Assembly: GCF_033153115.1 (NCBI RefSeq)
Contig: NW_026889789.1
Location: 2,728,001-2,792,000 of the forward strand
Source: Saccostrea echinata
Lineage: Eukaryota
Length of the DNA stretch: 64,000 bases
Direction of reading: 5' to 3'
Shown: in pieces, positions 4,132 to 6,454 of the stretch
Numbering within the stretch: position 1 is the stretch's first letter
How the letters are laid out: the number at the start of each line of letters is the position of its first letter
Translations under genes and position numbers: made by a program
Notes under the pieces: model-generated
What the model saw: only the letters and a program-made list of their open reading frames with translations
Database searches by the model: none
Told to the model about the DNA's origin: nothing

Positions 4132-4274
4132 CTTTTTTAAAACACGTCTGACTTGGACAATGAACTTTTTCAGAATGAATGATTTTTTTGGGGGTCATAC
4201 CTCTTTATATAACCTTATCCAATCTATTTTTAGCATCTCAGGAAAAACCCAACAACAGTTTTTTTTTTTTGATT

Positions 4275-4727
4275 TTATGATTTATTTCCTTCATATCTAC
4301 ATAATGGACAAAGTCTGTAGCAAATCTTGACGAAGTTCTCGACACATTTCACACAGCATGGATACTGTCGGCATTGTTGGCACTTCCATCTCCCCTCCGT
4401 ATTTTCCTCCCAGCAGGTCAGACATTTCTTTAAGGCTCTCTTCCTGGTCACTTTGACCCATAGGGGCACCATATTCTCTGCCCCGTACTTCCATGTGAAA
4501 TATTTCACGCACCATCTACATCCACAGGTCTCCATGGAAGGGGGATCATCCACAAACCAGTGAGGAAAAGCCATTTCACAATGCTCGCAAAATTGATAAG
4601 TTCTGTGATGCCATCCTGGATGATCATACACCGTAAATGTACGCTCATGGATCATCTCCCTATCACAGTAATGACAGTAATACTTTTCTACCTCAAAGAA
4701 ATACTTCAGTCTCCACATAAAAATCAT
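4275..4727 (-). CDS. Cys-rich zinc-ribbon + RING-like protein (RING2), putative E3 ligase
   Basis: N-terminal CHYC...CEHC and CGCRWC. C-terminal CLTC-x10-CQQC-x4-CCVKC...CPLCR. Confidence 0.8.
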   Translation of the reverse strand: MIFMWRLKYFFEVEKYYCHYCDREMIHERTFTVYDHPGWHHRTYQFCEHCEMAFPHWFVDDPPSMETCGCRWCVKYFTWKYGAENMVPLWVKVTRKRALKKCLTCWEENTEGRWKCQQCRQYPCCVKCVENFVKICYRLCPLCRYEGNKS

Positions 4728-4774
4728 GATGAAATGTGGTGGTGGTGGTGGTGGTGAAAATTTTTTTTTTTCAC

Positions 4775-4896
4775 AAAAAAAAGCTCAGCTTTAAAAATAC
4801 CTTTGGATCTGACTATTTATAGTCGCTTTGTGAAATTTTTTTCCAAAAAAGCTCAGCTTTAAATACCTTTGGATCTGACTATTTATAGTCGCTTTG
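4775..4896. repeat. Two direct copies of a ~55-bp promoter unit upstream of RING2
   Basis: AAAAAAGCTCAGCTTTAAA(AA)TACCTTTGGATCTGACTATTTATAGTCGCTTTG at 4775-4830 and 4845-4896. Confidence 0.9.
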
Positions 4897-4933
4897 GAAA
4901 AACCCACACGTGCTTCACACGTTCTTACTCTAT

Positions 4934-5133
4934 TTAAGTCTATTGGTTTTTCCAAAGTCAAAAAATAATTTTTTTTAAGTCTATTGGTTTTTCCAAAGTC
5001 AAAAAATAATTTTTTTTAAGTCTATTGGTTTTTCCAAAGTCTAAAAATAGATTTTTTAAGTCTATTGGTTTTTCCAAAGTCAAAAAATAAATTTTTTAAG
5101 TCTATTGGTTTTTCCAAAGTCTAAAAATAGATT
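4934..5133. repeat. Five tandem copies of a 40-41 bp unit inside the Polinton
   Basis: TAAGTCTATTGGTTTTTCCAAAGTC(A/T)AAAAATA(A/G) starts near 4935, 4976, 5017, 5057 and 5097. Confidence 0.95.
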
Positions 5134-5283
5134 TAAAAAAAAAAAAAAAACCCTCAGGTTTTTTACCTAGGGCATAAACTTGGCACCGATTCAAGTCATC
5201 AAGCTGCCTATTGTGACGTCATCACATGTATTCAGCTGAGAAAAATAAGACCTGGTTTGGTTTTATAGTTTTTTTTATTATTA

Positions 5284-5733
5284 TTATTGTTCAAATCGAC
5301 ACAAGGGACAACTTCTGTAAGAAAGCCGTATAATGGACTTGTAACACTTTTCACAGCAGGGATATTTCATACACTGTTGACATTTCCATTTTCCTTGGGT
5401 GTTTTCTTCCCAGCAGGAGGGGCATCTCTCGATCTTGGTATTTCTTCTCATGCGCTTAGCCCAACGTGGCATCATAAAATCAACCCCATATTTCCACAGG
5501 TAATATTTCAGGCACCAATCACAGCGACAATACCACAAACTAGGGGGATCGTCTACTTCCCAGTGAGGTATACGTTCTCCACATTCATTACATCCCCAAT
5601 ACCAACCAATAAGGTCGTCGTCGTCACTGTCATACTCAGGTAATCTGCTGATCTCTCTCAACTGCCTATGGCAATGAGGACAGGCACTATTTTCTTGGTG
5701 AAGAAAATACGACATTCTCCACACAGAAGGCAT
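5284..5733 (-). CDS. Cys-rich zinc-ribbon + RING-like protein (RING1), paralog of RING2
   Basis: CPHC...CNEC, PHWEVDDPPS, CRCDWC, WKYG and CPSCWEENT.GKWKCQQC..YPCCEKC...CPLCR are all shared with RING2. The first ATG is at 5733 (the track start is GTG). Confidence 0.8.
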   Translation of the reverse strand: MPSVWRMSYFLHQENSACPHCHRQLREISRLPEYDSDDDDLIGWYWGCNECGERIPHWEVDDPPSLWYCRCDWCLKYYLWKYGVDFMMPRWAKRMRRNTKIERCPSCWEENTQGKWKCQQCMKYPCCEKCYKSIIRLSYRSCPLCRFEQ

Positions 5734-5879
5734 GATTGAAAAAAAAATGAGCACAGTGAACTCAAAGCTAAGATTTATATATATACCTTGGGATATCTAT
5801 TTTTAGTCGAAGCGGAAAAACCAACAACACCAGAATTTTTTTTTTCTTAGGTTTTTAATTCACAACAACAACAACAACA

Positions 5880-6350
5880 TTAAATTAACAAACATGGAAT
5901 ACTTTTGCATAGTTCTTTTTGAATAGGAAAAGTTCTCCTCATGTACAAATATTCTGTTTCACAAGCACAGTCCATGATGTCGTATCCTTCTCTGAGCACT
6001 TTGTTTACATAATCTTTGATACAATCTCGAACTTCTTCCATCCATTTTCCTTGAATCCAGGTCCTTGCTGGTGCCTCTGTTTTGTGAGCCAAAACGTATT
6101 TGACTTTCCATTTGAATTCCTGATACTGGGGTCGCCATGACCCTAATAATAATACTATGAGTGGTGCACATTCATGGTCCGGTAATTTGAATCTCTTATA
6201 CAGGTACACATCATTGAGTCCTGTTTCTCCCGGATTCTTATCCATGAAATCTTGGATGCATTCCTCTTTGTTTTTCATCCATTCTCCTTTTTTAGTGGAA
6301 CCTGTAGGCTCTTGCATTTTCCAACGATACTCGGAGCTTAAAAATTCCAT
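5880..6350 (-). CDS. Accessory gene X1, unknown function, internal two-fold repeat
   Basis: Intact 156-aa ORF with an upstream TATA. The motif YRW...GEWM....CIQDF recurs as FKW...GKWM....CIKDY. Confidence 0.8.
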   Translation of the reverse strand: MEFLSSEYRWKMQEPTGSTKKGEWMKNKEECIQDFMDKNPGETGLNDVYLYKRFKLPDHECAPLIVLLLGSWRPQYQEFKWKVKYVLAHKTEAPARTWIQGKWMEEVRDCIKDYVNKVLREGYDIMDCACETEYLYMRRTFPIQKELCKSIPCLLI

Positions 6351-6454
6351 GTTGTGCTCTGTCCTCAGTCAGATCAGAAATGAAAAAAATCTTTGTTGTT
6401 TTCCCATTTTATATATATACTCTGTGGTGTATCTATTTTTTTTTAAAAAAGACA

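Follow-up and report, generated by a model that had tools for sequence, protein, structure and literature searches.

A two-box upstream module shared by accessory genes of a Saccostrea echinata Polinton is a candidate composite promoter element for host factors

In human T-cell leukemia virus type 1 (HTLV-1), an integrated virus, the long terminal repeat (LTR) carries a MEF2 site just 5′ of the TATA box, beside repeats of the cAMP response element (CRE) type, and another MEF2-like site lies across the TATA box itself (PMC4374383). In Epstein–Barr virus (EBV), repeated MEF2 sites together with a CRE/AP-1 site in the BZLF1 promoter Zp control a silent viral genome, and Zp-V3 carries the NFAT site TGGAAA (PMC8706188, PMC6082571). 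Endogenous mavirus-like elements, which belong to a related class of integrated double-stranded DNA elements, have type-specific upstream motifs recognized by sequence analysis (PMC8547959). Animal Polintons, Mavericks and adintoviruses share pPolB, ATPase, chromodomain integrase, capsid and IAP genes, an accessory region and an (ACT)2 end (PMC8502044, PMC8097293). In the open-access literature, with paper supplements such as the annotated maps of PMC8502044 outside the search, we found no study of animal Polinton promoters or of the module described below; the word 'promoter' occurs 0 times in PMC8502044 and twice in PMC8097293, neither time about Maverick promoters. Here we analyzed a window of 64,000 nucleotides (nt) from the oyster Saccostrea echinata (contig NW_026889789.1), in which a Polinton/Maverick occupies positions 1-15669 with all of its genes on the minus strand and its left end beyond the window, and we describe a two-box module that recurs at the promoters of its accessory genes.

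The accessory genes X1, RING1, RING2 and X2 form a cassette that has the TM gene on one side and the minor capsid gene on the other. Upstream of X2, RING2 and RING1, the coding (minus) strand reads GGTTTTTCC (box 1)-N7-CTAWAAATAG (box 2)-N11-13-TATA. The spacer between the boxes is exactly 7 nt in all three promoters, TATA begins 12 (X2), 13 (RING2) or 11 (RING1) nt past box 2, and the module lies about 45-75 nt upstream of the predicted initiator, directly 5′ of TATA. In the X2 promoter, box 1 (GGTTTTTCC, 4241-4249, minus strand) is followed 7 nt later by box 2 (CTAAAAATAG, 4224-4233, minus strand), an exact MEF2 consensus, and by a core promoter (4178-4211, minus strand) with TATATAAAG at 4211-4203 and a predicted TCATT initiator whose A is at 4180, with a second at 4176. 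The RING2 promoter (4857-4904, minus strand) has box 1 at 4904-4896, box 2 (CTATAAATAG) at 4888-4879 and a TATA variant, TATTTAAAG, at 4865-4857, and lacks a TCA(G/T)T where an initiator would be expected. In the RING1 promoter (5746-5822, minus strand), box 1 (5822-5814) and box 2 (5806-5797) precede a TATA run (5785-5774) and a predicted initiator with its A at 5748. The X1 promoter (6379-6442, minus strand) carries a decayed module, in which the 3′ part of box 2 (6442-6433) precedes a TATA run (6419-6408) and a predicted initiator A at 6381. All four sites lie where the initial annotation had placed them. It had described their order and approximate spacing as conserved in front of two unrelated gene families; the order held, the distance between the boxes proved to be exact, and the RING and X families, each a pair of paralogues, have no mutual sequence similarity. 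The RING2 module is 380 nt from the stop of the upstream gene, yet at its usual distance from TATA, and therefore belongs to the downstream promoter; this spacing rules out a 3′-end signal of the upstream gene.

Further copies of the module lie within the cassette. A five-copy array of a 41-nt unit (4933-5134, plus strand; 93% matches), a putative enhancer multimer, contains the module in inverted orientation with a 5-nt spacer; box 1 is intact in all five units and box 2 in two. The initial annotation listed neither this array nor the motif copies at the pPolB and major capsid promoters described below. A partial tandem duplicate of the RING2 promoter (4795-4835, minus strand), situated 66 nt downstream and 95% identical over 41 nt, has box 2 at 4822-4813 and lacks box 1. 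Record lengths suggest that this duplicate is missing from the copies of two other studies.

The pairing of the boxes was then compared with chance. The box 1-box 2 pair pattern matches at five places in the window, and 100 shuffles gave no match. The intergenic DNA of the cassette (681 nt, excluding the array and the RING2 promoter duplicate) contains three copies each of box 1 (0.022 expected) and box 2 (0.010 expected), and neither count was reached in any of 2000 shuffles. Because the motifs had been picked after being seen, a motif-blind test was also run: 18 of 26 columns are invariant among the three promoters, compared with a maximum of 14 in 300 shuffles and of 15 in 120 triples drawn from 10 other upstream regions of the element. 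Shuffles and motif-blind test thus agree on enrichment over a matched background, a check that the initial annotation had called for. The host flank (47,762 nt) has one box 2 (1.9 expected), two copies of box 1 (0.64 expected) and no pair. All 10 box-1 and seven box-2 sites of the element are intergenic, intergenic DNA making up 1,752 of its 15,522 nt. We consider it highly likely that the module is a functional promoter element.

Box 2 matches CTA(T/A)4TA(G/A) exactly in three of the four cassette promoters, two of the five array units and the RING2 duplicate, and its only variable position falls within the (A/T)4 core. This is the consensus of MEF2, as the initial annotation had recognized, and CTAAAAATAG is the core of the Glut4 MEF2 probe (PMC4374383). 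Judged by this match, MEF2 is the probable occupant of box 2. Box 1 is a pseudo-palindrome of the form GG-W5-CC; its closing CC, present in 10 of 10 copies, would make it suitable for a dimeric Rel-homology factor. The Dorsal consensus is GGG-W4-5-CC, and box 1 is compatible with a Dorsal-type GG(G)-W4-5-CC in all 10 copies, with the third G in two. The classical kappaB consensus is GGGRNWYYCC; this 10-bp pattern is not matched by box 1 and is matched by a site at 11343 in the IAP promoter. GGTTTTTCC occurs in the Drosophila sog_Distal and brk5' enhancer sequences, where it is not labelled as a Dorsal site, and the TonE/NFAT5 site is TGGAAAATTAC. Box 1 differs from these Dorsal and TonE sites in that most of its copies lack the third G, and the 7-nt pairing with a MEF2 site was not found. 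GGAAA is present in 10 of 10 copies and TGGAAA in eight, as expected of an NFAT site, and this sequence is lost in an allele at 4897; in EBV Zp, NFAT binding depends on a single letter in the GG of TGGAAA (PMC6082571). The NFAT consensus probe contains GGAAAAAC, which it has in common with box 1 (PMC6082571), and the resemblance to Rel-homology sites noted initially is thereby borne out. Occupancy of box 1 by a Rel-homology factor, of Rel/Dorsal type or NFAT5, may be put at about an even chance from its letters.

The NF-kappaB pathway is present in oysters. The NFAT that has been described from a bivalve is NFAT5, which alone in its family is not calcium-regulated (PMC11898675), and NFAT5 has been tied to osmotic stress and infection (PMC11898675, PMC11838016). 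MEF2 can repress and then activate upon calcium signals (PMC8706188, PMC6505634). Immune, osmotic or calcium input to the module are all possible. Of the immune or calcium response proposed initially, the calcium arm becomes less plausible through NFAT (PMC11898675), and a calcium signal would then need to act by way of MEF2. Induction of the module by immune or stress signalling is a tentative suggestion, which we think somewhat less probable than its absence.

Our preferred reading, that the module is a composite promoter element through which host factors serve early and accessory genes, appears to us evenly balanced against the alternatives taken together. Under this reading, host RNA polymerase II factors would use the module as a proximal promoter element of fixed geometry; MEF2 on box 2 and a dimeric Rel-homology factor on box 1 would act jointly, switching the cassette as a group, and the inverted five-copy array would serve as an orientation-independent enhancer. 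Two promoters outside the cassette could receive the same input. The terminal pPolB promoter (15466-15564, minus strand) carries box 1 in reversed orientation at 15564-15556 and 15533-15525, followed by TGACGTCA (15515-15508), TATAAG (15500) and an initiator (15468), and the IAP promoter (11290-11354, minus strand) carries the kappaB-like GGGGAAAACCCC (11354-11343), TATA (11325) and an initiator (11292). Box 1 in the former and the kappaB-like site in the latter would tie the replication and anti-apoptotic genes to the signal that drives the cassette. No box 1 accompanies the capsid, core or packaging genes.

Compared with the known systems, the oyster Polinton differs from HTLV-1, whose LTR site is single, imperfect (7/10), tested and active together with viral Tax (PMC4374383), in that, at the level of sequence, a DNA element has several internal promoters in which a perfect site stands at a set distance from a partner box. 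EBV Zp is a single master-switch promoter of a herpesvirus that responds to calcium-regulated NFATc1 (PMC8706188, PMC6082571), whereas the oyster module is repeated before accessory genes, without a known switch gene, in a mollusc host. The motifs of the mavirus-like elements have a short core, TCTA, that matches giant-virus late promoters (PMC8547959); the oyster Polinton instead combines TATA/initiator cores of host type with a two-box upstream module on a subset of genes. By analogy, the module would function as the MEF2-bearing control regions do in HTLV-1 and EBV, and it would parallel the promoter motifs of endogenous virophages (PMC8547959).

The last of these parallels bears on an alternative in which the module is a constrained promoter element bound by a protein encoded by the element or by a factor that a co-infecting virus supplies, its likeness to MEF2 and Rel sites being incidental. 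The promoter motifs of endogenous virophages are read by giant-virus factors (PMC8547959), box 1 occurs twice near the element terminus, and no function is known for X1 and other proteins of the element. The module is also confined to one lineage: in 11 distant Polinton loci (capsid 30-41% identical; five families by shared words), the relaxed pair was found in none, and in four of the 11 no MEF2-like site was seen upstream of open reading frames (ORFs). Against it, box 2 fits a host consensus of 10 bp perfectly, its variation staying within what that consensus permits (PMC4374383), and the core promoters are of the ordinary TATA/initiator type; we consider this alternative unlikely. Two occurrences of CTAW4TAG in distant loci were rejected as modules, one (locus L033) lying inside a 75-nt repeat away from intact gene starts and the other (locus L030) about 2.5 kb past the apparent element end. 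The repeat of L033 (6389-6660) is a tandem array with MEF2-like sites, with TGACGTCA nearby, beside a degraded Polinton, and no link to a gene start was seen. A pattern scan of viral contigs gave nine matches, none with a tblastn hit to the 15 element proteins; scans of viral contigs with RING1, the major capsid protein (MCP) and an MCP alignment found no relative, and a search of metagenome contigs with an X1 alignment confirmed 0 of 351 candidates. None of 19 full-module pattern matches in metagenome contigs had an element-protein hit, and these were treated as chance.

To what extent the module is held by constraint or by descent can be read from the three promoters and from sibling copies. 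In pairwise comparisons of the three promoters, the boxes are identical at 55 of 57 positions, the spacer at 5 of 21, the preceding 10 nt at 9 of 30 and the following 11 nt at 11 of 33; RING1 and X2 are alike at all 19 box positions and at none of the 7 in the spacer. The identity of RING1 and RING2 at third codon positions is 0.55. Sibling sequences came from four of 10 listed data sets, belonging to four studies, and consisted of contigs only. At least two sibling contig ends, among the 14 listed of 111, fall in the slot past the TM gene; these diverged copies, from two studies, both read on the plus strand box 2 (CTAAAAATAG), seven new letters (ACTCCCT and GTTACCT) and then GG, the following gene not being visible. 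The five spacers of window and siblings agree at 20 of 70 pairwise positions. A contig from a third organism has a RING1 relative with 43 changes in 292, which 11 letters connect to 42 letters like those from 4224 onward; the 11 joining letters equal the distance in the window, and five of them are as in the window. Another contig has indels at 4212 and 4217, in the stretch from TATA to box 2, that cancel each other out. Conservation of the module among siblings is partial: box 2 and the 7-nt length are retained at both listed ends, box 1 is altered or partly visible, and the X1 module is decayed in near-identical contigs.

The three module promoters are probably copies of one ancestor, a relationship that the initial annotation had left unconsidered; the module probably arose once and was then copied as the cassette duplicated. 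Descent with little constraint, in which duplication or conversion spread a single intergenic unit from slot to slot and the boxes are its best-kept remnants, chosen afterwards, is nevertheless quite unlikely. It is true that the similarity of the RING1 and X2 promoters extends past the boxes (70% over 40 nt), that the RING1 promoter of the third organism resembles the X2 promoter, that the region readily undergoes duplication and homopolymer slippage, and that box 1 is changed or lost in common copies. However, remnants would not be expected to keep every box position of RING1 and X2 and no spacer position, or to retain length and box 2 in siblings whose spacers are again new. The extra similarity consists of an A-run and TGTTGTTG after the poly(A) signal; these are also present after pPolB and so may serve 3′-end formation of the upstream gene.

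Core promoters were examined throughout the element. Ten of the 15 genes have TATA with TCA(G/T)T 29-35 nt downstream, mostly at 33 nt; the genes without this pair are the minor capsid gene (N gap), RING2, the integrase gene, 7779-8636 and the ATPase gene. For Drosophila, a TATA and an initiator consensus have been given (PMC9302807). TATA was accordingly dropped as a distinguishing mark of the cassette, and the claim that it belongs to a special promoter grammar did not survive. Similar TATA-initiator spacing was seen at five or six places in the distant loci L029 and L030. Poly(A) hexamers lie at or just past the stops of RING2, RING1, X1, IAP, ATPase and pPolB, and these genes therefore look like separate polymerase II units. 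A contig beginning at 5744, near the predicted RING1 initiator, was rejected as evidence of a transcript start, as another contig spans to 5825 and contigs cannot show starts.

These core promoters are relevant to a further alternative, that box 2 is a second TATA-binding protein (TBP) site or another core-promoter element and that the regulatory site is box 1 only. CTATAAATAG stands exactly in the TATA position before the major capsid gene (1539-1548, minus strand), 33 nt ahead of TCATT and with no box 1. The same letters form box 2 of RING2, whose own TATA is a variant, and MEF2-like sites can overlap a TATA box (PMC4374383). Against this, CTAAAAATAG, which has no TATA inside, is the form of box 2 in two of the three promoters, in both intact array copies and at both listed sibling ends, and a separate TATA follows 11-13 nt past box 2; we judge the alternative very unlikely. 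That the repeats are sites of recombination or replication that shuffle the cassette, and not transcription signals, would suit the varying cassette content of siblings (in one contig, 293 other letters replace 5772-6538, which includes X1; in another, 6101 is joined to sequence like 4125-4148) and a Saccostrea gene model, P0125, that merges BIR, X1-like and X2-like parts, but the listed joints share no single position within the boxes and the module retains its orientation and TATA distance, making this reading highly improbable.

Several observations weigh against the composite host-factor element that we prefer. The three promoters are not independent events. In the X1 promoter of the window, box 1 is missing and box 2 is reduced to its 3′ part, and this decayed promoter is spanned by alignments of near-identical contigs from two studies. 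The array has a spacer of 5 rather than 7 nt, with box 2 altered in three of its five units, and the pPolB and IAP promoters contain no box 2. Box 1 is also variable: at 4897, within the RING2 copy of box 1, contigs of two independent studies have G>A, a variant at 4250 removes the third G at box 1 of X2, and of the two sibling ends one shows GG only and the other has four A. Conservation of the boxes in the third organism rests on 40 listed variants of 446 and is thus not established. The relaxed pair is missing from all 11 distant loci and five families, and short A/T-rich motifs fit many factors.

The remaining sequence signals upstream were recorded as follows. A TGACGTCA palindrome lies between RING1 and the array (5214-5221); we take TGACGTCA to be of the CRE type. 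It was rejected as an enriched signal, with two occurrences in the element and five in the host flank. Upstream of pPolB, 15566-15650 contains, on the minus strand, two CCGGGTCAACT-AGTGCAC-like repeats and GAGGTCAAGGTCA, which presumably resemble nuclear-receptor half-site repeats.

X1 (5880-6350, minus strand) encodes a two-repeat alpha/beta protein of 156 amino acids (aa) from a small family. Its predicted model is confident (pLDDT 81.8, two alpha/beta repeats). X1 has no Pfam match, and its best match among PDB sequences has an E value of 0.076; with the model, Foldseek gave nothing in its pdb and viral sets at E 0.001, and the best VIA-align Z was 5.0. A known DNA-binding fold was therefore not assigned to X1, there being no clear Pfam, PDB, Foldseek or VIA-align match, and the weak matches are uninformative either way. 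The X1 family has 22 representatives, two of which are fused to a BIR domain; one of these is a Saccostrea gene model. Such BIR-X fusions suggest that IAP and X genes adjoin in other copies of the element. X2 (3745-4131, minus strand) is an X1 paralogue (25% over 134 aa) with an in-frame stop at 3966-3964. RING1 (5284-5733, minus strand; 149 aa) is cysteine-rich with a C-terminal RING-like zinc finger as a lead, and RING2 (4275-4727, minus strand; 150 aa) is its paralogue, 45% identical. Neither protein matched Pfam RING at E 0.1; Atlas gave leads of 0.83-0.87, and the model has a pLDDT of 50.7.

The element was assigned to the Polintons/Mavericks from pPolB plus integrase, an A32-type ATPase plus a major capsid gene, and an end motif at one end. 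pPolB (11401-15438) matches the Pfam profile PF03175 (E 2.8e-57), IAP (10746-11288) has BIR and RING domain matches, the A32-type ATPase (10062-10703) matches Pox_A32 (E 4.2e-6), and the integrase with chromodomain (6691-7782) matches rve (E 6.3e-11) and chromo (E 1.1e-8); the TM gene is at 6455-6721, and these five, like the capsid genes, are on the minus strand. The gene at 2515-3498 is presumably the minor capsid gene, as synteny suggests. The major capsid gene (239-1480) encodes a protein 97% identical to an S. echinata 'F54H12.2-like' protein, a label that we take to denote a Polinton capsid, and gene set and order are as in the distant loci. The terminus ACTACT (15664-15669, plus strand) is the (ACT)2 Maverick end motif; Maverick ends are (AGT)2//(ACT)2 or (AG)3//(CT)3 (PMC8097293). 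The major capsid ORF is 413 aa long, about 60 aa short of the 473 aa of its best homologue; with this short ORF and the in-frame stop of X2, this copy looks to be decaying or defective. No second copy was found in the rest of the 64,000-nt window. The end of X2 and the promoter of the minor capsid gene fall within an N gap at 3538-3684.

In nine of the 11 distant loci, the TM and minor capsid genes are 35-144 nt apart; of the remaining two, one has a different gene order and one no TM match. Homology searches found no relative of X or RING1/2 in any of the 11. The cassette is therefore a lineage-specific insert, as the genes on either side of it adjoin in distant loci without X or RING. The distant loci L029-L039 are animal-type Polintons on contigs filed under bacterial metagenome-assembled genomes (six copies in one) and are probably host contamination. 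In the host flank of the window, arrays of an 11-nt unit of the CATTAAGCCAC type, at 17624-17930 and 19621-19797, occur in both orientations and are typical of a repeat element.

Extending the composite host-factor reading, a multimerized pair of MEF2 and Rel-homology sites, linked by box 1 to the polymerase and IAP promoters, might gate an early programme by host signals, as a switch from latency to activity like EBV Zp; we hold this extension to be doubtful. If true, it would name the first host trigger for an animal Polinton, infection or salinity stress via NFAT5, and the accessory cassette would carry its own portable regulatory module. The two-box element, with its natural loss alleles and natural multimer, is a direct handle on Polinton activation, naming host factors and predicting both start sites and a division between early genes (pPolB, IAP, RING and X) and structural genes. 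If immune or salinity signals drive the module, endogenous viral genes, among them those for anti-apoptotic and RING-like proteins, would be expressed under disease or estuarine stress in an oyster genus that is farmed.

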